Source: a virus
Length of the DNA stretch: 64,000 nt
Strand: one strand, 5' to 3'
Virus record (IMG/VR): IMGVR_UViG_3300027804_000049
Location: 1 to 64,000 of that record
Shown here: positions 9,033-33,585 of the stretch, one piece after another
How positions within the stretch are numbered: position 1 is the stretch's first letter
How the letters are laid out: every line of letters starts with the position of its first letter
Notes under the pieces: generated by a model
Database searches by the model: none
What the model was told of the DNA's origin: nothing
The model's input: the letters and a program-made list of their open reading frames with translations, nothing else
Translations under genes and position numbers: made by a program

Positions 9033-9033
9033 T

Positions 9034-14344: not shown

Positions 14345-15242
14345 TATCTTTATTGCCATATTGGCAAAGCAAAAGGAAGGAGTTTTGCCTTTATTCTTGC
14401 GCTCGCTTTATGAGCTTGACTACCCTAAGGAAAACATATCACTATACGTAAGAACAAATAACAACACGGATAACACGAAGGAAATCTTAGAAAGTTGGCT
14501 AGCTAAACACCGAGCAGAATATCGCTACGTATCCTATGATAGCAGTGATATTGCAGACGCAGTTCAAGAATACAAGGTTCATGAGTGGAACGGCGTACGT
14601 TTTCGCGCACTTGCTAAGATACGTCAGGCAAGTATAGATGCGTGTCTACAAAGTGATTGTGATTACTACTTTGTAATTGACGTTGATAACTTTTTATTTC
14701 CTGAAACGCTAAAGGATCTTATAGAGGCTAACAAACCTATAGTCGCGCCACTGCTACGTTACGCGGTTGCAAATGACGAGTTTCCAGATACACCTGAGGA
14801 CCAGGAGCGTGTGGGAAGTCACAAGTGTCGCTACTACTCGAATTACCACCACATGGTAGACGACTATGGCTCAATATTAAATGAGCCAGTGTATTATCAA
14901 CTTCTTTACCGCGTTCAAGGATATAAGGGAATTTGGGATGTTGATTGCGTGCATTGCACATATCTTATACAACGTAAATACTTAGACAAGCTTACGTATC
15001 TCGAGGATTCTGATCGCTATGAGTACATGGTATTTTCAGAGTCAGCGCGTAAGGCTAAAATTAACCAGTATCTCGATAATCGCAAGATCTACGGAATACT
15101 TACACTCACTGAAAATGCTAAAGTCTGCGAGTGGTTATTTGATAATCTAAAGGATATGGAGACGCGCGACGAGCGCTATCAACAACATAATCCACAGGAT
15201 GTCTTTTACACGCCTTCTAATGCAGTTATACTAGCTGACTAA
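14337..15242 (+). CDS. GT-A glycosyltransferase resembling the COLGALT (GT25) N-terminal / PLOD accessory domain
   Basis: IAILA..LDYPK..I..NTDNT.EIL..W..RF..KIRQA..DY.F.IDVDNFL..TL..LI..NK.IVAPLL..YSN..VHCTYLI mirrors the remembered COLGALT sequence. Confidence 0.75.
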   Translation: MSNIFIAILAKQKEGVLPLFLRSLYELDYPKENISLYVRTNNNTDNTKEILESWLAKHRAEYRYVSYDSSDIADAVQEYKVHEWNGVRFRALAKIRQASIDACLQSDCDYYFVIDVDNFLFPETLKDLIEANKPIVAPLLRYAVANDEFPDTPEDQERVGSHKCRYYSNYHHMVDDYGSILNEPVYYQLLYRVQGYKGIWDVDCVHCTYLIQRKYLDKLTYLEDSDRYEYMVFSESARKAKINQYLDNRKIYGILTLTENAKVCEWLFDNLKDMETRDERYQQHNPQDVFYTPSNAVILAD

Positions 15243-16211
15243 GCTAACTGAATTACCTGTCTTAGAACTTTTTAATATAGCCTCGCAAACCTTAAGAACC
15301 TCTATCCCCGACTCAACGGTTGCAACGTTGCTTGACTTACCGAGTACAAAGTCTCTAAATTCCTCATGCTCCAGTACGAGTGGCTCCTTCTTGTCAAGCT
15401 TGTAATATGTAATATTTCCATCTACAACTCCGCGAAATGTGTCAGAGTCATAAAGATCGTTTGGATAAAAGGCAAGTTTAACATTTAATGTATCCGCGAT
15501 TAGACAACCTTTTTCACCAAGAATGCGTGTTTCACGAATCTTGTTCGGGCTTAGCCAGTCAATTATGTGATTTGTTACAACGCCACCTTGCATCATCGCG
15601 GTGATGGAAACGATGTCCTCGTGTTCCTTACCCGAGTGACTTCCTGTGAATGCGGCAACCTTTTCATATTTGCGTTGCGTGATCCACGCGGTTAAATCAA
15701 TATCATGCGTTGCAAGATCCTTAACTACACCGACGTCCGCAATACGCGTTGGGTGCCAGCCTTGTCTTCTTGTAAACACCTCGTAGATATTTCCAAGTAG
15801 TCCCTGCTCGATAAGTTGACGTGCCTTTACGAGCGCGGGGTTATATCTTTCAATTTGCCCTACTGCTCCAACCAGGTGCGAATTTATCAACGCGGATTGA
15901 ATATTGATGGCCGAGGACACGTTGTGCGCAACAGGCTTTTCAACAAGTACGTGAGCTCCCATGTCAATTATCTCAAGGGCAACGTCCTCATGATAGATCG
16001 TAGGAACAGCAATAACGCAGTAGTCGATATTTTTTGGTATAAATTCAGGTATAGACTCAAGCAGTATCTCCGCCTTGACCGCCTTTGTAGGGTCTCCACC
16101 AGGGTCGTAAGACGCAACGAGTTGAACTCCAGGTAAGTTATTAAGGACGCGTGCGTGGTTACGTCCCATAACTCCAAGCCCAATAAGACCCGCCTTTAAG
16201 GCAGCTGACAT
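15231..16211 (-). CDS. Gfo/Idh/MocA NAD-dependent sugar-nucleotide 3-dehydrogenase (WbpB/WlbA/GnnA-like)
   Basis: GLIGLGVMG, VEKP, ERYNP, DLATHDID. Confidence 0.85.
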   Translation of the reverse strand: MSAALKAGLIGLGVMGRNHARVLNNLPGVQLVASYDPGGDPTKAVKAEILLESIPEFIPKNIDYCVIAVPTIYHEDVALEIIDMGAHVLVEKPVAHNVSSAINIQSALINSHLVGAVGQIERYNPALVKARQLIEQGLLGNIYEVFTRRQGWHPTRIADVGVVKDLATHDIDLTAWITQRKYEKVAAFTGSHSGKEHEDIVSITAMMQGGVVTNHIIDWLSPNKIRETRILGEKGCLIADTLNVKLAFYPNDLYDSDTFRGVVDGNITYYKLDKKEPLVLEHEEFRDFVLGKSSNVATVESGIEVLKVCEAILKSSKTGNSVSLVS

Positions 16212-17302
16212 CAGCTTCCAGCCTTGGCAATTTCGTTTACCGCGATGATGATTCTATGAAGTTGCCCTGGTGCAAGTTTAGGATGAACTGGCAGTGAGAT
16301 AACCTCACGACACGCCTTCTCTGTTTCAGGTAGATCAAGACTTTTATTATATGAAGGAAGTCGGTGTATTGGAGTTGGGTAATACACACCTGAGCCAATG
16401 TTTCGTTTCTCGAGCTCAGATATAAACTTATCTCTATCATGACCAACTACACGAATTGTGTATTGATGATACACGTGCTTATAGCCTTTGGGTGCGGTTG
16501 GCACTACAACTCCGTTTATATTTTCATTTAAGAATTTTCCATTTTCAATTCTATAGTTGTTGTACTTGTCAATTTTTTGTAGTTGAACTCGACCAATTGC
16601 CGCATGAACGTCAGTCATGCGATTATTTAATCCGACTACCTCATTTTGATAGCGTTTTTCCATCCCTTGGTTGCGTAGCATACGTGATAGTCTTTCAATA
16701 TTCTTGTCATATGTGACTATCATTCCACCCTCACCGCTTGTCATATTTTTAGTAGGATAAAATGAAAATGCGGCTCCATCTGCAAACGTCCCAACGTATG
16801 TTCCATCTATCATCGCGCCATGCGCCTGGGCAGCGTCCTCAAGTAAAAGAAGATCATGCTTCTTAGCAATTGCAACTAGTTGAGGCATGTTTGCAGGCAT
16901 GCCGTAAAGATGAACTGCCATGATTGCACGAGTTTTCTTTGTAATTAAAGACTCAACGTGTTTTGGGTCAATACAAAATGTATGAGGATCAATGTCAGCA
17001 AATACCGCCTTGGCTCCTGTAAGCTCAACCGCGTTTGCAGTTGCGGCAAATGAGAATGATGGAACTATGACCTCGTCACCGTGGCCAATCTTGTGCGCAA
17101 GAAGAAGAATGTGAAGAGCTGATGTTCCAGAGTTTACTGCAATTGACATTAAGTTAGAAACTAGTTTTTGTGAAAATTCATTTTCAAAGGAAAGTACCTC
17201 GCCTCCTTGCGCAAGGTTACCTGATTTCATAACCCGCTTAACTGCACGAATTTCCTTTCTTCCAATGTCTGGACTTGCTACGTTTATCATTTTCTTAGAC
17301 AT
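16211..17302 (-). CDS. DegT/DnrJ/EryC1/StrS PLP aminotransferase (WbpE/WlbC/GnnB-like)
   Basis: NSGTSALH, VHLYG, EDAAQAHG, FSFYPTKNMTSGEGG. Confidence 0.92.
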   Translation of the reverse strand: MSKKMINVASPDIGRKEIRAVKRVMKSGNLAQGGEVLSFENEFSQKLVSNLMSIAVNSGTSALHILLLAHKIGHGDEVIVPSFSFAATANAVELTGAKAVFADIDPHTFCIDPKHVESLITKKTRAIMAVHLYGMPANMPQLVAIAKKHDLLLLEDAAQAHGAMIDGTYVGTFADGAAFSFYPTKNMTSGEGGMIVTYDKNIERLSRMLRNQGMEKRYQNEVVGLNNRMTDVHAAIGRVQLQKIDKYNNYRIENGKFLNENINGVVVPTAPKGYKHVYHQYTIRVVGHDRDKFISELEKRNIGSGVYYPTPIHRLPSYNKSLDLPETEKACREVISLPVHPKLAPGQLHRIIIAVNEIAKAGS

Positions 17303-17810
17303 ATATCGGCTTTCCTTTGTAGTCTACCTGCCCAACGACGCGCGCTGGAATTCCCATAACTAAAGCAAATGGCGCAACATCCTTTGTTACAACTGCACCT
17401 GCAGCAACGACTGCCCATCTTCCAATTTTAACTGGTGCCACACAAATTGCTCCTGCTCCAATTGAAGCCCCTTCTTCTATTTCAACTCCAACCGCATTCC
17501 AATCATCTGTGTTTTTTTGCGTCTTGTCTTCGTTAATTGCTCGCGGATAGTGATCATTAGTGAGAATAACTCCAGGACCAATAAACACACCTTCATGTAT
17601 TTTTGCTGGCTCATAAATCATTGCGCCATTTTGTATCTTTGAGTTATCACCAATCTCAACTCCGGATCCAATATATGCGCCCTTTCCGACTATAACATTT
17701 TTTCCAATACGCGCGCTATCTCGTACTTGAGCATGGTGCCATATCTTTGCACCTTGATCAATAAATGCGGTATCGTGAATCTCGGCAGTTGATTCAATGT
17801 GAATTGTCAT
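17295..17810 (-). CDS. Hexapeptide-repeat N-acetyltransferase (WbpD/WlbB-like)
   Basis: KIWH, hexapeptide repeats, TNDHYPRA, GAVVTKDV..GIPAR. Confidence 0.88.
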   Translation of the reverse strand: MTIHIESTAEIHDTAFIDQGAKIWHHAQVRDSARIGKNVIVGKGAYIGSGVEIGDNSKIQNGAMIYEPAKIHEGVFIGPGVILTNDHYPRAINEDKTQKNTDDWNAVGVEIEEGASIGAGAICVAPVKIGRWAVVAAGAVVTKDVAPFALVMGIPARVVGQVDYKGKPIYV

Positions 17811-18313
17811 TCCTTTTCCTTTTTCTTTTTTGCCTTTTTCTTTTTTGGCTTGGAAAGCTTTTCTGTTTTCTGCGCATGGTACGCATCAACCGCATTAGCG
17901 CTCGTTCGCGAGCGCCAGGTAAAGTCACAAGCTTCACACTTAACAAGCTTCATCGTGCTCCAACGTCCTCCGCCAGGAACATCAACTATCAACGTGCGTA
18001 ATTTATTAGGTCGAGCGTTGCAATATGGGCACTGTGGAAAACGTTGACGTCGTGATTCCTGACCATTCCATGAGACTGATAATGTTCTTCTTATCTCACC
18101 TTCGTCTTTTCCTCCCCAGATTCCCCAGATCTGTCTGTGCTCTAACGCCCACTTTAAGCATTCCTGTCTCGCAGGACAAAGAAAACAAAGATTTTTTGCT
18201 TGATATTTTTCAGAAGGTTGCGTTGAGAAAAAATATTCACGTATCTTTTGATTTTCTGACTTAGCACACAGGGCTTCCTTTTGCCAGTCTAAACTTTTAG
18301 GAGTTATACTCAT
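17807..18313 (-). CDS. whiB: WhiB-family transcription factor with an extra C-terminal CxxC..CxxC domain and Lys-rich tail
   Basis: W..ALC, C-x2-C-x5-C, GIWGG. Confidence 0.9.
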   Translation of the reverse strand: MSITPKSLDWQKEALCAKSENQKIREYFFSTQPSEKYQAKNLCFLCPARQECLKWALEHRQIWGIWGGKDEGEIRRTLSVSWNGQESRRQRFPQCPYCNARPNKLRTLIVDVPGGGRWSTMKLVKCEACDFTWRSRTSANAVDAYHAQKTEKLSKPKKKKAKKKKEKE

Positions 18314-18687
18314 ACGAGTAGCACCTCAACCCAGGTAACCGGAGTTACACTATCGACTACGTCTCCGTATGGTGTTTCTCCATTTTCATCGCAAACTGAA
18401 AGATCGATGTCTTCGTCTACCTCTCCAGCGTATCCAATTGAGATTTTTGCATTTTCTAAAGATTGGAAACCATTTCCTAATGAAATTGATATTCCATCAC
18501 GCTGTAGCGCAGAGGCAAGCGCGCGACGTATCAACTCATTTTCGAGGTCAACGTGCTCGTCGGTAAAGAAAACTATGCTTTCATCAAGTTGCGGATCAAA
18601 GCCGTCGCCTGTCCACTCTTTCCATAAAAGTTCGCCTACGCGTGAGTCCTTCACGATATTCCTCATCTGGGGAGATGGATAAATCAT
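18310..18687 (-). CDS. Hypothetical acidic protein
   Basis: ATGA overlap with whiB; start uncertain. Confidence 0.55.
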   Translation of the reverse strand: MIYPSPQMRNIVKDSRVGELLWKEWTGDGFDPQLDESIVFFTDEHVDLENELIRRALASALQRDGISISLGNGFQSLENAKISIGYAGEVDEDIDLSVCDENGETPYGDVVDSVTPVTWVEVLLV

Positions 18688-18792
18688 ATATCGAGTGGAG
18701 TATTCTCGCGTTAAGAATCACCGATTATTTTTTACACGTGAGATTACCCTAGACCTGTAGAGATAGGGTCTTAAAGAGGCAGTGAGTGACTA

Positions 18793-19320
18793 CTAAGCGG
18801 CGTTATAAGTGCCAAGATAGAGTTCGCCTTGGGCATTAGGCCATAGGTATTGATAGTACTCTGGGCGATAGCCTTTATCCTCTGGCCAGCCAAACTGTGA
18901 GTACCAAGTATATTCCTTGCGTAGAAGCGCTATACGGTGAGTTGAGGCAAGCTGTTCATACTTTTCAATATCCTGTATCCAGGATGGAAATTTAAGTTCA
19001 TCTTCTATACGGCCTATCTTTACCGCGTGGTCATAGGTAGAAAATATCTTAGGTAGCATCGTTGAGTTAAAGCCACGACTAACCCACTCGTTGTAGCAGG
19101 CAAGAGTATAAGCGACTAAAGCAGTTTCGTAACCGCGCCACATATTTGCCGCAGGGTGATTTGCCCAGCCCTTTGGGTCACGGTTGTTATTGTTAGGGTC
19201 AAGACGGCTAATGGTTAACAGTAATTGCCATGCCTCAAGTACTTGCTTGTTTAGGCGCTTGTTATCAAGCTCGTGAGCGATGTGCTCAAACGAATCAGTG
19301 TGAGGTAAGAATGTTTGCAT
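18793..19320 (-). CDS. Pyrimidine-dimer glycosylase/endonuclease V-like protein (MSMEG_6728 family)
   Basis: MQTFLP, LDNKRLNKQ.LEA.Q, W.NHPA..MWRGYE.AL. Confidence 0.8.
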   Translation of the reverse strand: MQTFLPHTDSFEHIAHELDNKRLNKQVLEAWQLLLTISRLDPNNNNRDPKGWANHPAANMWRGYETALVAYTLACYNEWVSRGFNSTMLPKIFSTYDHAVKIGRIEDELKFPSWIQDIEKYEQLASTHRIALLRKEYTWYSQFGWPEDKGYRPEYYQYLWPNAQGELYLGTYNAA

Positions 19321-19354
19321 AGTCGTCCTTTGTCATTAGGGGTTTATTATATCA
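19321..19354 (-). promoter_or_regulatory. Extended -10 promoter (TGATATAAT) plus TAATGACAAAGGA leader/SD
   Basis: Similar arrangement at 33586-33620 and 28709-28744. Confidence 0.55.
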
Positions 19355-19627
19355 GGAACCTTGGTCGTAGTCCTCCTGATTTCCTGGGTCCTCGTACTCA
19401 TCAATTTGATCAATTGGCACATATATGCCTACTACCGTCACACGTCCGCAGGCGGTACATTCGCTAACAGCGCCTGGAGATAGTTGAATTGGAACGTTTA
19501 CACTTATTAGCCGCGTGATGATGTTTCCTCTTTCATCAACGCTATCTGCTTCCCAAACTGAGTTTTCGTCAATCCAACAACGCTCACATATTGGGACAAG
19601 TTCCTCCTCGCCACCGCGAATTGTCAT
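19352..19627 (-). CDS. Small CxxC..CxxC putative zinc-binding protein
   Basis: CERC, CTAC; ATGA overlap with the MTase gene. Confidence 0.6.
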   Translation of the reverse strand: MTIRGGEEELVPICERCWIDENSVWEADSVDERGNIITRLISVNVPIQLSPGAVSECTACGRVTVVGIYVPIDQIDEYEDPGNQEDYDQGS

Positions 19628-20862
19628 GTGTACATCTTCTTTGCAGCTTGACGTGAAAAGCCGCGATCTGCATCAACTAAAAATTCTCTATCACCAATTT
19701 TTTGTGCATCACCTTGTTGTGGATTTCCCTCTAGTGATTCCTTAATTGCCTTTGCAATCCACGAGGCTGCTTGCACTGGAACTGCCTTTCCCCATGTTGC
19801 CGCGAGCGCAGAGTAATCCTTTGATCCTTCAATGTCCCAGTCATCAGGAAGTCCTTGCATGCGTGCGCACTCTCTATGAGTTATAAGTCTTGGTTGCGTT
19901 GGGTGAATGACATGCTCTAACGCAGAGCCAGTTAACACGTTACACCAGTGATCTTCCTTCCATCGATAAGGTTGACTAAAGCCTAACTTAAACTCTCTAC
20001 GCTTAACGCGTGGAGCAACATCAGTCCACGTTTGAGGAAATGTATTATCGTTCATTTCCACTGCAAGTTTTATAGCACTTCCAAGATCTCCGTTTCCTGG
20101 CCAGTTTTTGTTTCCTATTATGTCGAATACATCTTTTATTCTTTGAACGTGTATGTTGTTTTTTCCAATGTGCCCGTCTACCTTTTGACTTTTAGATCTA
20201 AGATGTTTAACATGCTTTGATGGCGCAGGCTCAGTGTAAGGCTGCTTATTCCAACTTTGTGGCATTTCTGCGAGGTCGCCAATGATATCCATAATCCTTG
20301 GAAGCTCTTTAGTCTTTGGCATTACAACGTCAAACTTAAGTCCTTTTCTTACCGCAACCCAAAAGTATCTTGGACGATAAGAAAATCCGCCAAGTTGTAG
20401 GTTATTATGTTTAACATGGTAAAGATCGTACTTTTTACCAGAAACTTCCTCGACCATATCGCGATATTTAAGCATTACATCTCTACCTTGAGTATAAGCT
20501 TGTTGAACACACTCAAAGACGACTGCTTGAGGTTTTACACGTCCTGCGTATTTCATAAATGCTCGCGTGTGTTCGTGCACCTTTGCATCAATTCCTCTGT
20601 TACTCGGTCCTGACCATACCGACCATCCTGAGCACGGTGGACAGCCAAGAACTATATCTGTCTTCTTTGTTTCCCACTCGCCTGCATCATCTGAGAAGTT
20701 TGCTACCCAATTGTTTCCCATATGAGTTCTGTTGTTTTCAACCACCTGGTTTCCAAAGTTTAGCGTCCCTGTGCGATGAATCATTTCCATTCCATTTTGC
20801 ACAAAACCAAGACTCATAAAGCCAGCAAGACCGTTGCAGTCAACAAACGTCATTTGCGACAT
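19624..20862 (-). CDS. Atypical C5-cytosine DNA methyltransferase-fold enzyme
   Basis: GCPPCSGWS (IV), FECV (VI), YRPRYF (VIII), RECARMQGLPDDW (IX), GKAVP (X); motif I degenerate. Confidence 0.85.
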   Translation of the reverse strand: MSQMTFVDCNGLAGFMSLGFVQNGMEMIHRTGTLNFGNQVVENNRTHMGNNWVANFSDDAGEWETKKTDIVLGCPPCSGWSVWSGPSNRGIDAKVHEHTRAFMKYAGRVKPQAVVFECVQQAYTQGRDVMLKYRDMVEEVSGKKYDLYHVKHNNLQLGGFSYRPRYFWVAVRKGLKFDVVMPKTKELPRIMDIIGDLAEMPQSWNKQPYTEPAPSKHVKHLRSKSQKVDGHIGKNNIHVQRIKDVFDIIGNKNWPGNGDLGSAIKLAVEMNDNTFPQTWTDVAPRVKRREFKLGFSQPYRWKEDHWCNVLTGSALEHVIHPTQPRLITHRECARMQGLPDDWDIEGSKDYSALAATWGKAVPVQAASWIAKAIKESLEGNPQQGDAQKIGDREFLVDADRGFSRQAAKKMYT

Positions 20863-20939: not shown

Positions 20940-21242
20940 TTAGCTAGTTTTTTCTGCCTGGGTTCTTCCTACCTCGTACCCACAACCAGCGTATCCTGCA
21001 ATATCAATCCAGGTATCAGGTTGAAACCCAGATTTATTTGCGTATCGTGCGATCTTTAATCCAATCATCAACATTCCCACGTCTTCCTGGGTAACATTTA
21101 TCCCAAGAATTACTGACCATATTCTTGCGATGCGATCAAAGTTTTCCTCAGGACCTCCATATTGAATGTCACGATCACCTGCAATGATGCGTGCAGCTTC
21201 GCGCAATGCCTCTACTCGATATAAAGATTTCTCATCACTCAT
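20940..21242 (-). CDS. DUF6378-like phage nucleotide-metabolism-associated protein
   Basis: DR..QYGGPEENF.RIA..WS..KIAR..D.W.DIAGYA. Confidence 0.75.
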   Translation of the reverse strand: MSDEKSLYRVEALREAARIIAGDRDIQYGGPEENFDRIARIWSVILGINVTQEDVGMLMIGLKIARYANKSGFQPDTWIDIAGYAGCGYEVGRTQAEKTS

Positions 21243-21243
21243 A

Positions 21244-21444: not shown

Positions 21445-21860
21445 TGAATTCGTTTCTGCAGTTGATAAGGAGCGTAGTGAGCGCCGTCAAGAATTGGTTC
21501 CTTGTCATCAGTTGACTTAAACACAATATCTCCGTAGCGCACAGCGACAACACGTCCTCTTCTTCCATTGTGAATAACTCCTGTGCTACCGTCATAGGCA
21601 TCAGCCTTTACACGAACCTCATCACCTACGTTAATTGATCCTGGTTGCGCATCAATCCATTTTTCAGTTGGTGGCTCAGGGATAATTGAGTGTGTAAGCG
21701 CCAGTTGTGGAAACAACGCAATAGCTTCCTTTACTTGTGGACCAGAAAGATCAAGCGTTTCCCACGTCTTTAGCAGCTTTAAGATGGCATTCCCAACACC
21801 AACCTTTACACGTGCACCTTGCATTTGCTGGCGCACCCAGTCATAATTTACCTCAGGCAT
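21441..21860 (-). CDS. Hypothetical protein with SH3/KOW-like C-terminus
   Basis: INVGDEVRV..GRVVAVRYGDI; GGAGG SD. Confidence 0.6.
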   Translation of the reverse strand: MPEVNYDWVRQQMQGARVKVGVGNAILKLLKTWETLDLSGPQVKEAIALFPQLALTHSIIPEPPTEKWIDAQPGSINVGDEVRVKADAYDGSTGVIHNGRRGRVVAVRYGDIVFKSTDDKEPILDGAHYAPYQLQKRIQ

Positions 21861-22338
21861 TTCCGTCTACCTCCTTTGGAAGACATTTTGCACACATATC
21901 TGGTGATGCGCCTCGACCAACGTCGTCAATTGCACGGGCGCAGAGCGCACATTTGACGCCAATCTCTTTAACCTTGTATCCATCTAGTTGTCTTTGTTTG
22001 TTTCGTTCCATCTTTTCAATGTAAAACTTATCAAGCATCTCATCTGTTCCACCAGCTGCAACAATAATATTTGCGACAAAGTGTAAAACGTCAACCGCCT
22101 CCTTGACAATTTCCTCGCGATCTGCATATGGCTTATCGTGTTGCCAAGGCTTCCATGATATTGCCTGACGCATCTCTGCAAGTTCATCGTCAATGGCAAG
22201 CATATTCCAACGCATGTACTCAATGAGACGACGAATATTTGCGTCTTTGTCGCCTGACATGTCATCAAAGTTTATGTAATAAACGTCTGTTTGTAGATCC
22301 TTTGTGCGTTTAATCCAGTTGTTAAACAATATTCCCAT
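21853..22338 (-). CDS. All-alpha dimeric dUTPase/dCTPase (T4 gp56-like) with C-terminal CxxC..CxxC
   Basis: ELAE, WKPW, EAVDVLHF, K..RN..RQ..GY. Confidence 0.8.
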   Translation of the reverse strand: MGILFNNWIKRTKDLQTDVYYINFDDMSGDKDANIRRLIEYMRWNMLAIDDELAEMRQAISWKPWQHDKPYADREEIVKEAVDVLHFVANIIVAAGGTDEMLDKFYIEKMERNKQRQLDGYKVKEIGVKCALCARAIDDVGRGASPDMCAKCLPKEVDGNA

Positions 22339-22343
22339 GACTA

Positions 22344-24601: not shown

Positions 24602-24663
24602 CTAAGTGTGTTTAGCGCGTCACCTACGCATAATATACATAGGTGACGACTAAACGCACTTAG
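24602..24663 (-). other. Long intergenic hairpin (~30-bp imperfect stem)
   Basis: CTAAGTGTGTTTAG..CGTCACCTA / TAGGTGACG..CTAAACGCACTTAG. Confidence 0.8.
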
Positions 24664-25199: not shown

Positions 25200-25202
25200 T
25201 GA

Positions 25203-25973
25203 TTAGCCTTTCTGTTCTGTTGGTTGTGGTTGTGGTGGTGTCTTTGGACCAAACACGACATCGAGCATGCGCTCAATGCCGAGATTCTCTTGTTCTACTA
25301 TTGCGCCAAGACGTCCTTGAACGCGCTCGCCAGCTTCGTACTCGTTAGTACGTTCTACGTACATGCGTCGCACTTTATATGGAGATTGCAGTGGATCTGG
25401 GTTTGGTAAAGATTCGACTGTCAACGCTCCAAGAATATCATAAAAATATGGTGCTTGGATTGCTAACTGTCCTTGTAAGTATGGACGTGAACGTCCATCA
25501 CTTGAGCGTGCCATTGCAGTTAATACAACAGCTTCTAGTGGGTTAGTTGGGTGCATGGTTAAATCACGTAGGTCACGCAGCAGCGCTCCCATGTGACGAA
25601 GTAGTTCACCCCACTGTTGCATTTTCATTTGTTCATTGCCTGCAATTGAGTCCATACATTTAACCTGTAACTCAGATATTGAGTCAATGATTAAGCTTTT
25701 GAACTGATGCTTACCTAGTTGCAGCCATTGATACGTCTTTATAACTGTATCGTAATCACGGACGGTGACAACACATGTATCCCAGGTACCATCTGCGACA
25801 GGTGGTTCTTCGCGCAGCGGGTCCCAATACTTAACTATGATTGGCAGAAATCGATGTCCGCCTTCAACGTCAAGCATTAGTCGGGGATACGGTGCTGTGA
25901 CAGCAAAGGTGGACTTTCCAACCTTAGACTCTCCATACACCATCATCGTGAGGGATCTTTGTACTTGTGACAT
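25203..25973 (-). CDS. AAA_24/Sak4-like ATPase (recombinase)
   Basis: YGESKVGKST, LDVEGG, IIDSISE. Confidence 0.8.
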   Translation of the reverse strand: MSQVQRSLTMMVYGESKVGKSTFAVTAPYPRLMLDVEGGHRFLPIIVKYWDPLREEPPVADGTWDTCVVTVRDYDTVIKTYQWLQLGKHQFKSLIIDSISELQVKCMDSIAGNEQMKMQQWGELLRHMGALLRDLRDLTMHPTNPLEAVVLTAMARSSDGRSRPYLQGQLAIQAPYFYDILGALTVESLPNPDPLQSPYKVRRMYVERTNEYEAGERVQGRLGAIVEQENLGIERMLDVVFGPKTPPQPQPTEQKG

Positions 25974-25976
25974 GCG

Positions 25977-26906
25977 TCACTCACTTCCTTTCTTCTCTTC
26001 TGTTCCGTAGTATCCATATGGATCTCCTACATCGAACATTTCACTGATTGCTTGTTCGGCGGCGCTTCCGTCGTCTAACAAAGGGCATACAGTGAAAAAC
26101 TGGCATTTCCATTTACAGTCGCGACTTGGGCGCGGGTATGCAACGTAGCGATGATCTGCACCTGCGTCAAGGTCATCGCGTGTTTTCATTAGATCAGTTA
26201 AAACTCCGTTTACTCTTTGCCAAAAAGAACGCAAGGCAAAGACATTGTGACGTACTTCAATTTGATCAAAAAATGGCGGACGTGCATTTGTGCTTCTTTT
26301 TACCTTTTTTAACAAGGTAAATATTCCGCCTTCGCTTCTTTCACCGTCTTTATTTTGCGCTGTCTCGAGTAACATATACGTAAGTATCTGCTCATTCATG
26401 TGTGCCATCGCACCAAAGTCTGTAAATGATCCACCGACAGTCTTAAAGTCGCGGAACATACGCACACCATCAGCCTTACGACGAACACGCATATCGATCT
26501 TTCCTTGAAGCTCTACGCGTCCTTCAAGCATTGGCATTGAAATAATTTCCTCGGTAGAGATCATCTCAAGCTCTGAGTCAATTCCATTTTCCTCTACCCA
26601 TTGCAGGTAACCTTCAAGCATGATGCGCCCAAGCTCTGCCTCAGAGTCAAGATCGTAAGTATCACGAAATGAATCCTCTAACGCCTTACGGTCTGTTGCA
26701 ACTAACATAGAGTGCGCCTCTAAAAGTGGAATACTTTTTGAGTAGTAATCATCAAGTGCCTGGTGAATACGACTTCCAAGTGCGAGCGCACCTGTCATCT
26801 GCTGTGTTTTAGGTTGTAAGCGTCTATAGTAACTTAACCACCACTTACGCTTGCAGTCCTTATACGTTTGAACTTCAGAGTTAGAAATCTTTATAGGCTC
26901 TGTCAT
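25977..26906 (-). CDS. PD-(D/E)xK Cas4/RecB-like exonuclease
   Basis: N-terminal C..KW, G..IH, GKID..RDFKT, Q...Y, CKWKCQF...C. Confidence 0.8.
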   Translation of the reverse strand: MTEPIKISNSEVQTYKDCKRKWWLSYYRRLQPKTQQMTGALALGSRIHQALDDYYSKSIPLLEAHSMLVATDRKALEDSFRDTYDLDSEAELGRIMLEGYLQWVEENGIDSELEMISTEEIISMPMLEGRVELQGKIDMRVRRKADGVRMFRDFKTVGGSFTDFGAMAHMNEQILTYMLLETAQNKDGERSEGGIFTLLKKVKRSTNARPPFFDQIEVRHNVFALRSFWQRVNGVLTDLMKTRDDLDAGADHRYVAYPRPSRDCKWKCQFFTVCPLLDDGSAAEQAISEMFDVGDPYGYYGTEEKKGSE

Positions 26907-28708
26907 AGTTTTCCTGCCTTATCGTCTTTAAGTAAGCTAAGTAGCTTGTCTTTGTCACGAACAATTTGTTCGAAGTTGTCTGCCTTGGTTTCAAGAACTT
27001 GAATCACCCGTTCCTCGATAGTTCCTTCAGTAACATAGTCTGTCACAATAATTGAGTCATGAATTTCTGATCCAATACGGTGTACACGATCTAAAGCCTG
27101 TCTGTGATCAACAAGTGACCATGGACGTTGCAACATGATTAGGCGACGTGCGGCAGTGAGTGTAATGCCAACGCCGCCTGCCTGCGCGGTAAAAAGAATC
27201 CACTTAATCTTTCCTGCTTGAAAATCATCTACTGCCTGCTGTCTTTCGTCTTCGTTTTGAGCTCCAGTGATAAGACCGTGTCGTATACCTTCCTTAGTTA
27301 GTGCAGCGCTTAAAAGATAAATTAACTGTCTTGAGACTGCACATACGGCGACCGAGTCATTTCCAAAGTCACCACTTTTTATATCGTCCATCAAGGCATC
27401 AACCTTACACGATGGCTCGGTAAGTACCGCCTTTATCTCACCTGTAGTTTCGTTTACTGCCATCTCTGCGTATGAGCTTGCAAACTGTAAAAGACGAATT
27501 GTTTGTGTAAGTGCTGACGGCGCGGTTATTGCATCTCCATTTTCTAACTCTGCAATCATCATGTCACGCATTTGCTTATAAGCTTTTTCCTGCTTGGTTG
27601 ACATCTCAACGTCGCGACGCTCGAACATCATCTCAGGTAGCCAAGGAAGAACCTTAGCCTTAAGCATACGACGCATGCGTGGGTTTATTGCTGCATAAAA
27701 TTCTTGTTCCATATGAGGCTTTACGCCTAAAACCATCATGCCACCAAAGGCATTAAGCATGGTGTTAATCATTCTGTCAACCCAACGTGTCTTACTTGGC
27801 CACTCATTTGGACTTAGCCAGTGAAGAATTGACCATAGATCTAAAACATCATTTGCAATTGGCGTTCCTGTAAGTGCAAATCTAATATCCGCATCACCTG
27901 TGGCGGCCCAGAGCGCACGAGTTTGCTTTGACTTTGCTTCCTTGGATCTGTGAATTTCATCAGCTATAACTGCCTTAAAATCAATGTTGTTTAATTCACG
28001 CAGATGAACTTCGCAGCGATTTTCCGAAACCTTTTCATCGTGCCCGCCGCAGGACTGACACCTTGCTAGAGCAATTGACCCATAACCTGCCAGGCGGGAA
28101 TGAGTTCTTAAACCTTCCCAGTTAATTACATAAACATCGGCTGGTTCCATAAATTGCTTACGACGTTGACCTGCGCTTCCTTTGATGACTTGCACGTTTA
28201 CGTCTGGCCACCATTTTACAAACTCACGCTTCCAGTTTTTCTTTAGGGTGTTAGGGCAAACTACCAAGGCAGGAAATATATCTTCACCTGAGTCCTTAAA
28301 TGCCTTTAAGGCACGTATTGCCTGGGCAGTCTTACCAAGGCCAGGCTCGTCGGCAAGTAATGCTCTACGGGCAGTCTTTAAAAATGCAACGCCTGCCCTT
28401 TGATGCGGAAATAGGTCCGCATTAGAGAGGTCCTCTAGGGTCTCTAGGTCACGAAGATTATTCGCTGGGGTAATCCGATTGGCAAGCTCACCAGTGGCCC
28501 AGTCGGTCAATTTAGGGCCAATAATTAGGTCATTTCTAAAGGTAGATCTCAACGCGAGACACGTTGCCCAGCTCAATGGGACTGTCCACACGCTTAGCTT
28601 TGTATCCCACTTTGCGCCAGGTAAACTTTTACAAAGTTCCTTAAAGCGCCACTCAGCATTGATTACTACGTGCTTGTTTAAGTCGTCAAGCTCTACGTTC
28701 ACAGACAC
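26903..28708 (-). CDS. SNF2-family helicase
   Basis: LADEPGLGKT, DEIH, LTGTP, QA.DRVHRIG. Confidence 0.9.
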   Translation of the reverse strand: MSVNVELDDLNKHVVINAEWRFKELCKSLPGAKWDTKLSVWTVPLSWATCLALRSTFRNDLIIGPKLTDWATGELANRITPANNLRDLETLEDLSNADLFPHQRAGVAFLKTARRALLADEPGLGKTAQAIRALKAFKDSGEDIFPALVVCPNTLKKNWKREFVKWWPDVNVQVIKGSAGQRRKQFMEPADVYVINWEGLRTHSRLAGYGSIALARCQSCGGHDEKVSENRCEVHLRELNNIDFKAVIADEIHRSKEAKSKQTRALWAATGDADIRFALTGTPIANDVLDLWSILHWLSPNEWPSKTRWVDRMINTMLNAFGGMMVLGVKPHMEQEFYAAINPRMRRMLKAKVLPWLPEMMFERRDVEMSTKQEKAYKQMRDMMIAELENGDAITAPSALTQTIRLLQFASSYAEMAVNETTGEIKAVLTEPSCKVDALMDDIKSGDFGNDSVAVCAVSRQLIYLLSAALTKEGIRHGLITGAQNEDERQQAVDDFQAGKIKWILFTAQAGGVGITLTAARRLIMLQRPWSLVDHRQALDRVHRIGSEIHDSIIVTDYVTEGTIEERVIQVLETKADNFEQIVRDKDKLLSLLKDDKAGKL

Positions 28709-28793
28709 CTAAAAGGTTCCTTTCGTCATTAAGTCGTTATACTAACAGGTTTTGATAAAAAAGTAACTACATTTTGACCTAGTATGTAGATTT

Positions 28794-29246
28794 TTATTGA
28801 AGCAGGCGCAAAGGCTTCCATCCTAGCTTTACACAGCGTAAAAGGCCGTGACGTATGGCATCAAGTGCGTGGCCTTCGCCTCCCTTGTGCCAGTACTCTA
28901 ATTTCTTCAATTTTGAGTTATCAAACATTCCTTTTGCGTCAGAAGGCGATTGAAAATATATGTCATCTGGTTTTCTTCCAACGTCAATAAGACACTGCTT
29001 GAGGACCCCTATTTGTTCTAACGAAAAAGGCGCCTGGCTGTTTCTTACTGTTTGTGCGTTTATGACAAACCGTTCACATATAACCTCGGCCACAGGATTA
29101 TTTTTTAGAACCTCGCGTATCGGCTTGGCGTATTCCTCCTGTTGAACCTCCATTGACCAAACAAGCACAGGCTCCTGTCCGCTTGTGAACTCAAACAACG
29201 CAAGACCTGTTGCCTTCCCTGGATCAACTGCAAGTATCTGCTTCAT
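28794..29246 (-). CDS. RuvC-like Holliday junction resolvase
   Basis: LAVDPGKATG, ERF, HALDA. Confidence 0.7.
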   Translation of the reverse strand: MKQILAVDPGKATGLALFEFTSGQEPVLVWSMEVQQEEYAKPIREVLKNNPVAEVICERFVINAQTVRNSQAPFSLEQIGVLKQCLIDVGRKPDDIYFQSPSDAKGMFDNSKLKKLEYWHKGGEGHALDAIRHGLLRCVKLGWKPLRLLQ

Positions 29247-31069
29247 CGATATTTTTCTCCCCAGTTTTCCATAGGTCCGTCAATTCCTGCAGTAAGAGGA
29301 ACATCCCAACCTTGTGTAGTTGTCATGCACTGTTGAACTATCTTTTTAATTTCCTCTGCGTCCTTGCGCGGTGCGTTAAGCACAATTTCATCGTGCACTG
29401 GAACGATAAGAAGTTCAGTTAAGTCAGCTTGATCTAACTTGACAAGGTTTGCCTTAAATACCTCGGCAGCGCCTCCTTGGATTAAATAATTCACCAAGGT
29501 GTAAACTCTATCCTCGTCACACGGCAGTCTTCTGCCTGTCCATGTATATACGTACCCTTGACCTTCTGCTTTTAAGCGACGCATTCCAGCATCTTCAATT
29601 TGACGTTGAAAGTGCGCCATTCCAGGAAACCTTGTATCAAAAGCGTCTGATACAGATCTCATCTGCCCTTCTTGTACTCTAGCTGTAATTGCTTGTTTTG
29701 CGACTCCAGCTCCGTAAAGACGACCGTATACCGTTCCTTTAATAAGGTTACGACGCTTATCTGAGCGTTGCATATTTGGATCGTTGTAGATTTCTTTACC
29801 AATTTCCGTAAACGGATCTGACCCGGTAGCATCAGCTCTATTGAATAGGTTGATGAGATTTGGATCTTGCGAAAGTGAGGCAAACATTCTGAACTCAACT
29901 TGGTCAAGGTCGCTGGTAACAATGACATGTTCATCGTCCTTTGGTATAAATGCCGTGCGAACAGTGTCATCACCCTTGGGCAATGTTTGCAAGGCTGGAT
30001 TTTGTATGCTCATACGACTTGTGCGAGCACCAAGTGTTTTTACGGAAGGGTGAACTACTCCGTTTACGTTATCGCTTAAGAAGTTTGAAAAATAAGTATT
30101 TGCAAGCTTGTCTGCCTTACGCTGTTTTAACACAATTTCGGCAAGATTTTTTACGTCATCGTTTCCGTTAATGGTAAGTAGATTTAATTGATCCTTTGTT
30201 GCAGATTTTTGTCCTGTAGGTGTAAATTCTGTAATTTCCGCGCCTAGTTTCTCAAAAAGACGCACCAGTTGAATGTTACTTGATATAGAAGTGCCATTGT
30301 AGGCCTGCTTAGCCCAATCTTTTACTGATTGGCTATAGTCATTTAGCTCTTGATACTTTCTCTTAGAGTACTCAAGGTCTACGCGCGCTCCATTTATCTC
30401 CATACGTGTAACAATCTTGCGCGCAGCCATTTCAAGCTCGTAAGCGCGGTTATATGGACCTGTAGGACCGCACTTTTCGTAGAACATCTCCCATAGACGC
30501 ATTGTAAGTACCGTATCAAGTGCACCATACGCCCAGTAAGGTTCAAAGTTTACTGGAACTGTTCCCCACGTCCAACCGTTTTCAATAAGCTTAACGTCTA
30601 AGGTATCTTGCAACGCAACTGCACGTCCGTCAACATATAATGCGGCAAGTTGCTTTAATGCACCAGATCCTAAAGGATCAATTATATGTGCCATAATCAT
30701 AGTGTCGTGTGACCTATGCCATGGAATGTCCCAACGAGATTGAACTGCAAACCAGCGAGCCTCAAACGCAATGTTGTGACAAACTAACTGGCCATCAAAC
30801 TTATCCATTGCCTCATAAAATACACCTGCCCACTCCTGCCACGGAATTGCCCAACCTTGCTGTCCATCTCCAACTTGAACAAGGCGTAGTTGGCCATGCC
30901 AGGGAGACAACGCGTCTTTTCTTTCTCCACCAGGCTTTTCACCAGTTTCAGTGTCAACTGCAATTGCGTTGTGTGGGCGTCTTTCACCGAGCCAACGTAT
31001 AAAAGCCTCTGCCTTTTCTACGTTGTCTACGAGGTGAAGTTTAACGTCACCTAGTCCACTATCTGTCAT
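29243..31069 (-). CDS. polA: Family A DNA polymerase (3'-5' exonuclease + polymerase)
   Basis: DTET, HNIAFE, YGALD; DLDQVEFR (A), KGTVYGRLYG (B), VHDE (C). Confidence 0.93.
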   Translation of the reverse strand: MTDSGLGDVKLHLVDNVEKAEAFIRWLGERRPHNAIAVDTETGEKPGGERKDALSPWHGQLRLVQVGDGQQGWAIPWQEWAGVFYEAMDKFDGQLVCHNIAFEARWFAVQSRWDIPWHRSHDTMIMAHIIDPLGSGALKQLAALYVDGRAVALQDTLDVKLIENGWTWGTVPVNFEPYWAYGALDTVLTMRLWEMFYEKCGPTGPYNRAYELEMAARKIVTRMEINGARVDLEYSKRKYQELNDYSQSVKDWAKQAYNGTSISSNIQLVRLFEKLGAEITEFTPTGQKSATKDQLNLLTINGNDDVKNLAEIVLKQRKADKLANTYFSNFLSDNVNGVVHPSVKTLGARTSRMSIQNPALQTLPKGDDTVRTAFIPKDDEHVIVTSDLDQVEFRMFASLSQDPNLINLFNRADATGSDPFTEIGKEIYNDPNMQRSDKRRNLIKGTVYGRLYGAGVAKQAITARVQEGQMRSVSDAFDTRFPGMAHFQRQIEDAGMRRLKAEGQGYVYTWTGRRLPCDEDRVYTLVNYLIQGGAAEVFKANLVKLDQADLTELLIVPVHDEIVLNAPRKDAEEIKKIVQQCMTTTQGWDVPLTAGIDGPMENWGEKYR

Positions 31070-31559
31070 TTACATCCTTTGTTATTGTTACTTCTATATT
31101 ACACTGTAAAAAGTACTCTACGGTCTCATCAGGAAGACGATGAGATGCGCGAGTGCCAATTCTCATAACAACACGACGTATTCCAGCGTTTGATATTAGC
31201 TTTGCACACTGATAACATGCTGCATCAGTTATGTATATGGTTCCACCTTCAACCCGTGAGCGGTCTACGTATAAAAGCGCATTTGCCTCCGCATGTATTG
31301 ATGGGCAAGAGTCATACGTATTTGTCAAAGGAACTACTCCTTGCGCGCGTGGGCACCATTCAATGCAGTCACCTTCAACCGAAAGAGTTGACGCAGGGCC
31401 GTTGTATCCTGTTGCACTTACGCGTTGGTCCTTTGAGATAACAACTGCGCCTATTTGCGCACGACTACAGCGTGAACGTTTGGCAATTGAGTCTGCCACC
31501 GACATCCACGTTTCGTCCCAGGAGGGTCTAGTCAGATGATTCAGGTGGTCCTCCAACAA
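31059..31559 (-). CDS. dCMP deaminase
   Basis: RPSWDE..RS.C.R..GAV, TGYNG, HAEANA, CYQC. Confidence 0.88.
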   Translation of the reverse strand: MLEDHLNHLTRPSWDETWMSVADSIAKRSRCSRAQIGAVVISKDQRVSATGYNGPASTLSVEGDCIEWCPRAQGVVPLTNTYDSCPSIHAEANALLYVDRSRVEGGTIYITDAACYQCAKLISNAGIRRVVMRIGTRASHRLPDETVEYFLQCNIEVTITKDVNDR

Positions 31560-31728
31560 TCATGCTGTTAAAAAGCTTGCTAACTAAAAACATAGCTTCT
31601 TTACGAGTAAACCCAGCCGCCTGTAATTGAGTATACATCTCATGAAGTTGAACCATGGCAGCCTTCATTGGGCTTTCATACATGTCTTCAATTTCACGTT
31701 TTAATTTTTTCATTTTCTCTTCATCCAT
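31528..31728 (-). CDS. Hypothetical small protein
   Basis: LHEMY..L..AGFT..EA; operon packing. Confidence 0.55.
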   Translation of the reverse strand: MDEEKMKKLKREIEDMYESPMKAAMVQLHEMYTQLQAAGFTRKEAMFLVSKLFNSMIVGGPPESSD

Positions 31729-32587
31729 TTAATTTTTCCTTATTCTTCTCAATGGCGCGTATCATTGCACTAGCGTACCATCCTTCAAACGGGTGAAGTC
31801 TATAACGTAACATTGTCTCGTCTCTATGCTGAGCAGCGGTTAGCGCACTTAAGGCGTATGATGAAACTTGTTGCCAAGTTAATCCAGTGATGGCTGGAAC
31901 ATCCTCGTATTTGTCTGCGTACTTTAACTTATCAGCCATATCATAGTGTTGCTCGTAGATATGAAGAGATCCAACATGGTGCGTGTAGTTGCCAGGCTCA
32001 ATACCTAAGACAGATGCAATTGCAAGTTGAACACGTGTAAATTGAAAGAAGTCATACGCAGCTCCAAGCCACACGTCGTTCGAGCGCATGAACACAGTCA
32101 TATTTAACTTATTGTCACGTATTCTAAATTGGTGAAGTATCGTGCAAGGGTAATCACGTTTCTTTGGAAGTAGATCAAGCTCAGGATTCCATATCGTAAC
32201 AACTGCCTGTCTTGTGTCTGGATCCTGCCTTAGTCTTTCAATAATCTTTTCATATTGCCCTTGAGTTCTAAGACCATATGCGCCATGGAATAGTCCGTTG
32301 TCCTCAGCGTAGTTCTTAAATTGTGGACCAACTGCAATGACAAGTTTTGGCGTTGATATTCCAGCGAGAAGTTGACATGCCTCAACCGCACCAATACCTG
32401 GAACAGTTCCGCGTCCTACACCTAATGGTAGGGTGTTCTTTACATCATCAATACGAATTACCGCGTCCTCGATCTCACGGGTCTTCATTCCGCGCGGAGC
32501 GGTTTCTCGACCGTGCTCTAAGACGTGTTTAACAAGATCAACGTACCCGTTAACTCCGTCTGGTATGTTTATTATCGCAGTATCCAC
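31721..32587 (-). CDS. Thymidylate synthase homologue, dCMP-specific type (T4 gp42-like dCMP hydroxymethylase/modifier)
   Basis: PRG, AYG, DTRQA, DYPCT, MRSNDVWLGAAYD (Asp at the dUMP-selecting Asn site), SLHIY. Confidence 0.82.
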   Translation of the reverse strand: MDTAIINIPDGVNGYVDLVKHVLEHGRETAPRGMKTREIEDAVIRIDDVKNTLPLGVGRGTVPGIGAVEACQLLAGISTPKLVIAVGPQFKNYAEDNGLFHGAYGLRTQGQYEKIIERLRQDPDTRQAVVTIWNPELDLLPKKRDYPCTILHQFRIRDNKLNMTVFMRSNDVWLGAAYDFFQFTRVQLAIASVLGIEPGNYTHHVGSLHIYEQHYDMADKLKYADKYEDVPAITGLTWQQVSSYALSALTAAQHRDETMLRYRLHPFEGWYASAMIRAIEKNKEKLNG

Positions 32588-33585
32588 TGGCTCTCCCTGT
32601 TATATCGTAGTGATTGCTTAAATATCTCGTGCCCGTAATCTAGCTTGCGCGCGTTAGAGAAACGTCGTACATATTGCGGATGAGGAAGAACAACGTATTG
32701 GTGTTCCTTAAATCCATGAGCCTTTAGTCCTTTTTCTGCTAGGGTCCCAAGCGCAATTATTCTTGGTCTTTTTAATACCTGCCACAACTCGTCAACCTGT
32801 GTAACGTGCTCATCATTTACATTTATAATTCCTACAGTCTTCCAAGAGTTGCCTGGAAGAGATGATAACAAGAAATCACCAGAGTTTCCATCAACAGGCA
32901 TAAAGGGTAATATTGTCTCCTTGCCATAAGCTTCCTTTATATTTTGTCTATCTCCAACGAGTAGTACCTGCGCGTCATAACGTCCAATATACCAAGGAAA
33001 TTGTTTAAGACTATCTGCCTTAGTTGCCGCGTAGTGTGAATTACTTATTATTCTTTCCGCGAGCATGGGAATATCCTGTAGAGATTCGCTTGATGGGTTT
33101 AACATCTCGAACTCTGTGGCAACCTCGTCTGCCGCAAGTCGATATTGACCAAGGATCTTGTAAAGCTCATCGACAGTTACGTAATCGTCACCGCGAGATG
33201 AAAGACGACGTTGAATCACGTCTAAAGGTTGATAAAGCCAAAATTGATGAACACCGCGAGAGGCAAGAAAGAGTTCAACCCAACGCCAACCTGCAACGCC
33301 AAGTAAACCATAGCCGTCAGAGTCTGACTCAGGACGTTTTAATGGCGCATATGTGATTTCGCCCCAGTGCCAGCGATCTGCAACCGCAAGTCGTTTTGTC
33401 CAGTCAATATCCTGTATTGAGTTTACGTAATCATTTAATACCCAACGACGAGTCATCATATCTGGCTTTGATTTATGAAAAAATTCTACGTTATTGTTAG
33501 GAAACATTGACTTTAGTTGATGCTCGATCTCGGACACAAGAGTAGACTTACCAGAGGCGTCTGTACCTTCAACTACTATAAACAT
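32572..33585 (-). CDS. Nucleotide monophosphate kinase fused to a UDG-superfamily domain
   Basis: EGTDASGKST, DRWHWGE..Y; C-terminal VLLVGD, PF..NSG..L, IIALG..A, PHPQY. Confidence 0.75.
   Translation of the reverse strand: MFIVVEGTDASGKSTLVSEIEHQLKSMFPNNNVEFFHKSKPDMMTRRWVLNDYVNSIQDIDWTKRLAVADRWHWGEITYAPLKRPESDSDGYGLLGVAGWRWVELFLASRGVHQFWLYQPLDVIQRRLSSRGDDYVTVDELYKILGQYRLAADEVATEFEMLNPSSESLQDIPMLAERIISNSHYAATKADSLKQFPWYIGRYDAQVLLVGDRQNIKEAYGKETILPFMPVDGNSGDFLLSSLPGNSWKTVGIINVNDEHVTQVDELWQVLKRPRIIALGTLAEKGLKAHGFKEHQYVVLPHPQYVRRFSNARKLDYGHEIFKQSLRYNRESQWILR

Follow-up and report, generated by a model that had tools for sequence, protein, structure and literature searches.

The T-even phages, which infect enterobacteria, provide the textbook case of glycosylated 5-hydroxymethylcytosine (hmC) as a phage counter-defence. 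The T-even pathway to glucosyl-hmC comprises the deoxycytidine monophosphate (dCMP) hydroxymethylase gp42, the kinase gp1, the dCTPase/dUTPase gp56, the deaminase cd, and the alpha- and beta-glucosyltransferases. Here, we analysed a row of minus-strand genes (positions 15231–33585) in the first 64 kb, hereafter the window, of the IMG/VR virus record IMGVR_UViG_3300027804_000049, a single sequence of 114,610 bp that is approximately 89% complete according to CheckV. The gene complement of this row suggests that the phage likely replaces cytosine with glycosylated hmC. An earlier note on this DNA had proposed a T4-like cytosine replacement pathway, and the proposal is supported by an Asn-to-Asp substitution (N177D) in a thymidylate synthase (TS) homologue, a gp56-related pyrophosphatase and a predicted glycosyltransferase of the GT-B fold nearest to T4 beta-glucosyltransferase (BGT). 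The carriage of WhiB and the actinophage affiliation of the nearest deposited relatives indicate that the source virus is a lake actinobacteriophage. Actinomycetia phage DSL-LC01, which comes from Dishui Lake, is the closest of these relatives, and the Gordonia phages GodonK, Phendrix, GMA2, Sixama and Forza come next; no nucleotide match emerged when the interval was compared by megablast with 50,697 phage records. The comparisons below include more than 100 related IMG/VR contigs, and all co-occurrence data derive from one phage lineage. We infer the enzymatic activities, the DNA acceptor and the transferase that uses the product of the amino-sugar genes discussed below from gene identities, diagnostic residues, folds, conservation and co-segregation.

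The TS homologue (31721–32587, minus strand; PF00303, E-value of 5.6e-29) contains the motifs RDYPC and RSNDVWLGAAYD, and its best sequence match in the PDB is MilA, a CMP hydroxymethylase. We aligned it with Escherichia coli ThyA, T4 gp42, two enzymes of the deoxyuridine monophosphate (dUMP) hydroxymethylase type (from an Ackermannviridae phage and from CP-51) and actinophage relatives. In ThyA numbering, Cys146, which is invariant across the alignment, and Asp169, which lies within the motif RSND, are both kept, and positions 143 and 177 carry the substitutions L143D and N177D. The region around position 143 reads RDYPC, compared to ALAPC in E. coli and SDFMC in T4, and the AAYD segment aligns with FRND of T4 and LPFN of E. 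coli, confirming the aspartate previously noticed at the N177 site. D143, D169 and D177 are present in all 70 of the 70 TS homologues from the relative loci, and N177 is kept in the dUMP hydroxymethylase-type references within the same alignment. Lee et al. (NAR, 2026; PMC13326640) set out experimentally grounded rules for these residues: N177D selects dCMP, an acidic residue in place of L143 (L143D/E) accompanies a hydroxymethyl rather than a methyl product, and D169N marks the flavin-dependent 5-hydroxy-dCMP synthases. Because N177D and L143D are combined with a retained D169, these rules predict that the TS homologue is a 5-hydroxymethyl-dCMP synthase, and neither a 5-hydroxycytosine (5hoC) synthase nor a methylase. 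Thus, of the previously suggested products, 'hmC or hydroxy-C', the former agrees with L143D and the retained D169; the latter does not stand, and we reject a 5hoC synthase of the RB69 gp48 type given that the window, like each of the 70 relatives, retains aspartate at ThyA D169, where such a synthase would have asparagine. The TS homologue is the sole TS-family gene across the whole record, and a search of the 114.6-kb sequence for ThyX found none; therefore, thymidine monophosphate (dTMP) must be made by the host enzyme, which the phage dCMP deaminase supplies.

In the proposed pathway, the TS homologue would hydroxymethylate dCMP, a phage kinase would convert hm-dCMP to the diphosphate and the host nucleoside diphosphate (NDP) kinase would complete hm-dCTP; a gp56-like pyrophosphatase would remove dCTP and dUTP by hydrolysis, leaving PolA to incorporate hmC, and the dCMP deaminase (31059–31559, minus strand; PF00383, 7.5e-19) would supply dUMP to the host thymidylate synthase. 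The proposed dCTPase/dUTPase is an all-alpha nucleoside triphosphate (NTP) pyrophosphatase (21853–22338, minus strand) that scores 45.2 bits against PF08761 (dUTPase_2; cut-off of 22.9), the family that also includes T4 gp56 (25.4 bits), and matches gp56 directly in a BLASTP comparison (E-value of 8e-10), which bears out the gp56 kinship suggested earlier. A D-type TS annotated as 'pyrimidine hmase' is also encoded, along with an NTP pyrophosphatase-like gene and a dCMP deaminase, by the 56-kb Manatee Spring siphovirus MW202621; no glycosyltransferase is annotated within the 16.7 kb examined, and this phage may carry bare hmC.

The proposed hm-dCMP kinase (32572–33585, minus strand) displays the P-loop, the LID region and the kinase fold of deoxynucleoside monophosphate (thymidylate-type) kinases, and is fused to a C-terminal domain (residues 190–337) of the uracil-DNA glycosylase (UDG) superfamily fold, detected by fold search alone. 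A profile of this domain yielded no UDG match among the PDB sequences, and PF03167 reached an E-value of 0.06 at best, in 3 of 18 members. The aligned domains read VGDxRN and PHPQ and have no conserved cysteine, and thus do not conform to what we take to be the canonical motifs and Fe–S cysteines of family-4 UDGs. In an unrelated contig that encodes PolB (L069), a stand-alone UDG-family gene (positions 9207–9920) is found immediately upstream of a further D-type TS, and the pairing is perhaps functional, because it recurs in this unrelated setting. Proteins of the UDG fold may repeatedly be paired with phage dCMP hydroxymethylases and may discriminate host DNA containing C or U from modified phage DNA.

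Following replication, two GT-B enzymes resembling BGT would glycosylate hmC in DNA, with a host uridine diphosphate (UDP)-hexose as the probable donor. The two proposed DNA hmC glycosyltransferases, which we denote GT406 (23366–24586, minus strand) and GT341 (22344–23369, minus strand; a second or alternative enzyme), are full-length homologues of each other (hhalign E-value of 3e-35 over 329 columns). The structure was predicted for GT341, from an alignment of 59 relative clusters, and the fold of GT406 rests on its homology to GT341. The GT341 model (predicted local distance difference test score, pLDDT, of 96) has the two-Rossmann GT-B architecture, and its best structural match by two methods is BGT; hence, it falls closest to the BGT/AGT fold, where AGT is the T4 alpha-glucosyltransferase. 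At the sequence level, there is no Pfam, PHROG function or NCBIfam match that would place the pair in GT63 or GT72, and a phmmer search with GT406 against the PDB returned no match. The catalytic base of BGT is Asp100; the GT341 family contains an invariant Asp96 just past the strand 91–95, which might be its counterpart. Charge as a sign of DNA binding was considered and discarded as uninformative, the isoelectric points (pI) being 5.7 for GT341, 9.05 for BGT and 6.1 for AGT.

A profile-free search against 1.8 billion representatives recovered 316 clusters of GT341 relatives; a search of IMG/VR with a distant GT341 homologue (P0266) returned no match. The GT406 look-alike clusters in the Atlas are 99%–100% viral, and one of them has PF13524 in 37% of its members. 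The GT-B family is found in 14 of the 50,697 phage records, exactly the 14 that top the search for D-type TS. Across approximately 70 loci, the two genes take up a slot of constant size (2.45 kb) that DUF669 and the pyrophosphatase flank, with identities among relatives of 68%–100% for GT406 and 34%–98% for GT341. GT406 would add a conserved sugar, and GT341 would be a fast-evolving enzyme that changes the specificity. Taken together, these observations, in the one lineage sampled, are consistent with DNA glycosyltransferases exposed to diversifying pressure. Lineages differ in the accessory sugar genes that accompany the module. For instance, in contig L058 (positions 18056–19363; also in L070 and L071) an unrelated 435-aa open reading frame (ORF) without a Pfam match replaces GT406 and GT341 is retained; in DSL-LC01, a UDP-galactopyranose mutase (UGM) gene is inserted between both GT-B genes (28945–30042 of the locus examined); and in GodonK, four consecutive glycosyltransferase or glycosyltransferase-like genes precede the gp56-like gene (5736–9938), two of them being further annotated glycosyltransferases. 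In phage RL38JI, an NDP-sugar mutase has been proposed to serve DNA glycosylation (PMC13326640).

All the genes listed in the earlier note were recovered as ORFs, at the positions given there, in the minus-strand row, which additionally holds WhiB, a pyrimidine-dimer glycosylase, a recombination block and the UDG-fold domain of the kinase. Read from 33585 to 15231, the order is kinase, TS homologue, dCMP deaminase, PolA, recombination block, GT406, GT341 and pyrophosphatase, followed by two small ORFs, DUF6378, a C5-cytosine methyltransferase (MTase), the pyrimidine-dimer glycosylase, WhiB, an acetyltransferase, an aminotransferase and a dehydrogenase. Pfam matches identify the replication and recombination block (24660–31069, minus strand) as PolA (29243–31069), RuvC-like, SNF2 helicase, PD-(D/E)XK nuclease, AAA_24 RecA-like and DUF669 genes, which appear in identical order and with identical annotation in DSL-LC01. 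The DUF6378 protein (20940–21242, minus strand; PF19905, 1.2e-27) is kept in the module, and WhiB (PF02467), a small conserved ORF and the pyrimidine-dimer DNA glycosylase (PF03013) occupy 17807–19320 on the same strand. The DNA module is maintained in approximately 100 metagenomic relatives, in DSL-LC01 and in the cultured Gordonia phages GodonK, GMA2 and Forza, and the order GT-GT...MazG-x-MTase-x-WhiB is preserved in GodonK. In deposited relatives, the TS homologue goes by the label 'thymidylate synthase', and most transferases are called 'hypothetical'; the DSL-LC01 paper counts UGM and a methyltransferase among auxiliary metabolic genes and does not mention thymidylate synthase in its text. 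Searching the literature for hmC in actinobacteriophages or for GodonK retrieved nothing relevant, and we found no paper describing the DNA module.

The three genes that close the row on its 3' side (15231–17810, minus strand), hereafter the trio, encode a hexapeptide acetyltransferase (17295–17810), a DegT-family aminotransferase (16211–17302) and a GFO/IDH/MocA-family dehydrogenase (15231–16211), and are tied to WhiB by overlapping start and stop codons. The top NCBIfam match of the dehydrogenase is UDP-N-acetylglucosamine (UDP-GlcNAc) 3-dehydrogenase (1.8e-60; 205 bits against a cut-off of 450), and it also matches the PDB entry 7bvj; the aminotransferase matches the 3-aminotransferases QdtB and WbpE as well as 2oga, and the acetyltransferase matches 3mqg (3e-30) and QdtC. 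We take 7bvj, 2oga and 3mqg to be GnnA, DesV and WlbB respectively. All three enzymes score under every NCBIfam equivalog cut-off, and yet a 3-dehydrogenase of the GFO family, a DegT 3-aminotransferase and an N-acetyltransferase of the LbH type are combined in one operon of overlapping genes. The straightforward reading is that the trio constitutes a route from host UDP-GlcNAc to UDP-2,3-diacetamido-2,3-dideoxyglucose (UDP-GlcNAc3NAc), so that the 3-acetamido UDP-sugar previously suggested as a donor appears reasonable in light of the profile and PDB matches. The absence of arabinose-pathway genes, noted earlier for the window, extends to the whole 114.6-kb record, in which PF01370 (epimerase) and PF00483 (NTP-transferase) have no match. 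There is also no UDP-GlcNAc 6-dehydrogenase among the ORFs scanned and, therefore, the uronic-acid branch is unlikely.

The trio has a restricted distribution. Among the 46 distinct relative contigs that extend at least 3 kb past WhiB, it is present in 8, in addition to the window, and absent from 38, all of which keep the TS and GT-B genes wherever the sequence reaches; DSL-LC01 likewise lacks it, as does the GodonK module that we examined. The trio-bearing loci form a single clade, hence one evolutionary event, and the trio is always positioned between WhiB and a pair of genes encoding a family 2 glycosyltransferase (GT2) with TPR repeats and a GT-A enzyme. A scan of IMG/VR with the aminotransferase returned the same clade alone, and all matches of the dehydrogenase in the phage database share less than 31% identity with it, many being in unannotated fragments; without a trio in other phage lineages, there is therefore no independent gain or loss with which to assess co-occurrence. 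Thus, the earlier pairing of the trio with the DNA pathway is not upheld, nor is the expectation that the trio would co-occur with the TS and glycosyltransferase genes across related phages, given that TS and GT-B genes are kept without the trio in most of them and the trio co-segregates instead with a GT2 allele.

In the window, the GT2-TPR gene (13274–14344) and an Anp1-like GT-A gene (14337–15242), identified by Pfam matches and probably encoding protein (fibre) glycosyltransferases, are located on the plus strand, and the end of the dehydrogenase gene overlaps the end of the convergent GT-A gene by 12 bp. This pair ends an operon on the plus strand; the first three of its large genes encode collagen-repeat proteins, probably fibres (1096–8093; PF01391, 3e-24 to 3e-47), in which threonine occupies 169 of the 240 Y positions (70%) of the G-X-Y triplets. 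The pair and the collagen-like proteins are a probable fibre O-glycosylation module. To compare trio-carrying with trio-less loci, we aligned them all against all and contrasted the lowest identity within the trio group with the highest between the groups. A clean split emerges in both genes of the pair (GT2a, 87 versus 74; GT2b, 76 versus 63), and is lacking in the MTase (78 versus 80) and GT406 (86 versus 88) and, likewise, in the pyrimidine-dimer glycosylase and MazG. Moreover, in one trio-less contig (L118), the GT2 pair is an island of 59%–66% identity between flanks of 80% and 77%–90%. So the trio travels with a particular allele of the GT2 pair as a cassette. In three other trio-less contigs, L080, L082 (approximately 13170–14033) and L094 (6933–7796), the GT-A gene is on the same strand as WhiB rather than convergent. 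The junction of the DNA-metabolism and fibre operons has been rearranged repeatedly.

Accordingly, we favour, with about even confidence, two separate sugar systems, a T4-like hmC glycosylation module and a clade-specific trio cassette that most likely serves the fibres. The trio would convert host UDP-GlcNAc to UDP-2,3-diacetamido-2,3-dideoxyglucose, and the sugar would most likely pass to the adjacent GT2-TPR/GT-A pair for O-glycosylation of the Thr-rich collagen-like fibres, and not to DNA. As to the use of the trio alone, fibre or virion glycosylation takes about half of our confidence, a role as DNA donor something between a fifth and a quarter, and other uses what is left. Several observations weigh against the favoured reading. 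The trio shares its orientation, and is translationally coupled, with the DNA-metabolism operon rather than with the GT2 operon; its adjacency to the GT2 pair, together with the single event, could mean that co-segregation is mere linkage; and GT341 itself shows a small split between trio and trio-less loci (73 versus 67). As for the DNA module, BGT is ahead of the remaining GT-B folds by no more than about 1.5 Z units, and an hhalign comparison of the GT341 family profile with BGT gave a probability of 0.7%, that is, no sequence similarity; because the lead is modest and the sequence similarity absent, we speak of a resemblance of GT341 to BGT rather than of family membership. Finally, a C5-MTase-family enzyme with an intact catalytic cysteine is conserved in the module, and this argues against complete replacement of cytosine or for another role of the enzyme. 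This protein (19624–20862, minus strand; PF00145, 1.5e-24) has the variant motifs PPCS, ECV and GKAVP, the last of which, motif X, has lysine where asparagine is usual; GCPPCSG is conserved in 81 of 81 relatives and WGKAVP in 63 of 81, and a homologue is found at the matching module position in GodonK. If replacement were complete before polymerization, the enzyme would lack a phage substrate, because all cytosines would already be substituted at C5; either replacement is incomplete, or the enzyme has another DNA as its substrate or catalyses a different reaction.

The alternatives differ in the acceptor that they assign to each sugar. It is conceivable, although we doubt it, that a GT-B enzyme, most plausibly GT341, moves the 3-acetamido UDP-sugar of the trio onto hmC, which would amount to a new amino-sugar DNA hypermodification. 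The coupling of the trio to the 3' end of the operon with the TS, pyrophosphatase and GT-B genes speaks for this, as do the matches of the trio to enzymes of 3-amino and 3-N-acetyl sugars, the modest GT341 split that its neighbours lack, and the precedents, themselves proposals, of phage sugar-nucleotide enzymes serving DNA in RL38JI and, between the GT-B genes, in DSL-LC01. However, 4.5 kb with unrelated genes separate the trio from the GT-B genes, and the trio directly adjoins the GT2 pair; the change that co-segregates most strongly affects GT2a and GT2b rather than the GT-B genes, the similarity of GT406 between the groups about equals that within the trio group, in most relatives the DNA module functions in the absence of the trio, and the neighbouring Thr-rich collagen-like fibres are a natural acceptor. 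The more specific claim that the hmC of this clade is decorated with 2,3-diacetamido-2,3-dideoxyglucose, made by the trio and transferred by GT341, seems to us unlikely. A role of the trio in neither DNA nor virion, but in remodelling the host envelope or draining UDP-GlcNAc, for example in superinfection exclusion or cell-wall interference, is very improbable: the trio does appear to be expressed from an operon of the early or middle type beside WhiB and was evidently acquired from a cellular source, having no close phage homologue outside the clade, but an envelope role requires a transferase, for which the phage glycosyltransferases are the sole candidates, and the trio co-segregates with the GT2 allele.

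The remaining alternatives concern the DNA module itself. The GT-B pair might act on a protein, a cell-wall polymer or a small molecule, leaving hmC bare or partial beside C5-methylation. The pair has no sequence-level link to BGT or AGT, GT341 is acidic where BGT is basic by pI, and the conserved C5-MTase-family enzyme suggests that unmodified cytosine is available; nevertheless, AGT is also near-neutral, the top structural match by both methods is a DNA enzyme, the pair is fixed beside the gp56-like enzyme within an operon of nucleotide and DNA metabolism even in distant relatives, and the family is virus-only in the Atlas and restricted to phages with a D-type TS, all of which makes this alternative rather improbable. 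Least of all do we expect the TS homologue to be a dCMP methylase producing 5-methyl-dC or an ordinary dTMP synthase, despite its annotation as thymidylate synthase in all deposited relatives and the presence of a dCMP deaminase in a phage that encodes no other dTMP synthase: N177D disfavours dUMP, L143D fits hydroxymethylases over methylases, among solved structures its best relative is a cytidylate hydroxymethylase, and a gp56-like dCTPase and a GT-B pair would make little sense alongside dTMP or 5-methylcytosine.

Beyond the window, the record encodes a histone-deacetylase-family protein (PF00850, 3e-54) beside a dual-specificity phosphatase-like protein (71866–73426 of the record, minus strand; 7866–9426 of contig L158), an unusual phage cargo. 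Further genes in this part of the record include a 1452-aa PA14-domain protein (93257–97615, plus strand), a class II (B12-type) ribonucleotide reductase (106151–108187, minus strand), a third Anp1-like GT-A gene (108946–109776, plus strand) and several proteins with fn3 and glycine-rich domains.

If correct, the pathway proposed here extends glycosylated hmC to actinobacteriophages, a new host range, and the GT-B family adds new DNA glycosyltransferases with variable partners, such as UGM and extra glycosyltransferases. The module is conserved in a large group of lake phages, and modified DNA could bias their recovery by sequencing and shape the escape from restriction and CRISPR in freshwater Actinobacteria. 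Given that the cultured Gordonia phages GodonK, Phendrix, GMA2, Forza and Sixama bear the module, the prediction is directly testable. Were hmC to carry the diacetamido sugar after all, this would represent an amino-sugar DNA hypermodification of a kind not so far known from viruses. The locus also calls for caution, in that sugar genes located near a DNA-modification cluster need not belong to it.

Compared to described systems, the module parallels the glycosylated 5hoC pathways of RB69, DLP3 and RL38JI (PMC13326640), in which a dCMP-acting enzyme of the TS superfamily is likewise followed by DNA glycosyltransferases; some of the 5hoC phages encode NDP-sugar enzymes, and the RL38JI mutase has a counterpart in the UGM of DSL-LC01. 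Unlike in those phages, D169N is absent from the window and from all the 70 relatives, there are no arabinose genes and the product should be hmC. The trio, in turn, comprises the same three enzyme classes as the cellular pathways to UDP-2,3-diacetamido sugars, including GnnA/GnnB, WbpB-WbpE-WbpD, WlbA-WlbC-WlbB and the archaeal UDP-GlcNAc 3-dehydrogenase route, from which it differs in being phage-borne and in scoring under the NCBIfam equivalog cut-offs. The neighbouring fibre module, rather than the DNA module, resembles BclA of Bacillus, an O-glycosylated collagen-like protein of Gly-X-Thr composition with anthrose-containing glycans: here too, Gly-X-Thr repeats adjoin glycosyltransferases and a predicted amino-sugar pathway. 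Virion glycosylation reportedly occurs in mycobacteriophages such as Che8 and Corndog; the phage homologues of the GT2-TPR protein, by contrast, are found in jumbo phages, and not in mycobacteriophages. With respect to T4, the host is actinobacterial, replication relies on a PolA/SNF2/RecA-like module instead of the T4 replisome, the glycosyltransferases are paralogues of each other with no sequence similarity to BGT, the kinase is thymidylate kinase-like and fused to a UDG-fold domain, a conserved C5-MTase-family enzyme belongs to the module, and the pathway is a prediction from gene content. Nevertheless, the actinophage module shares with T4 a TS-family enzyme with C146, L143D and N177D, a gp56-family pyrophosphatase, a dCMP deaminase and two GT-B transferases.

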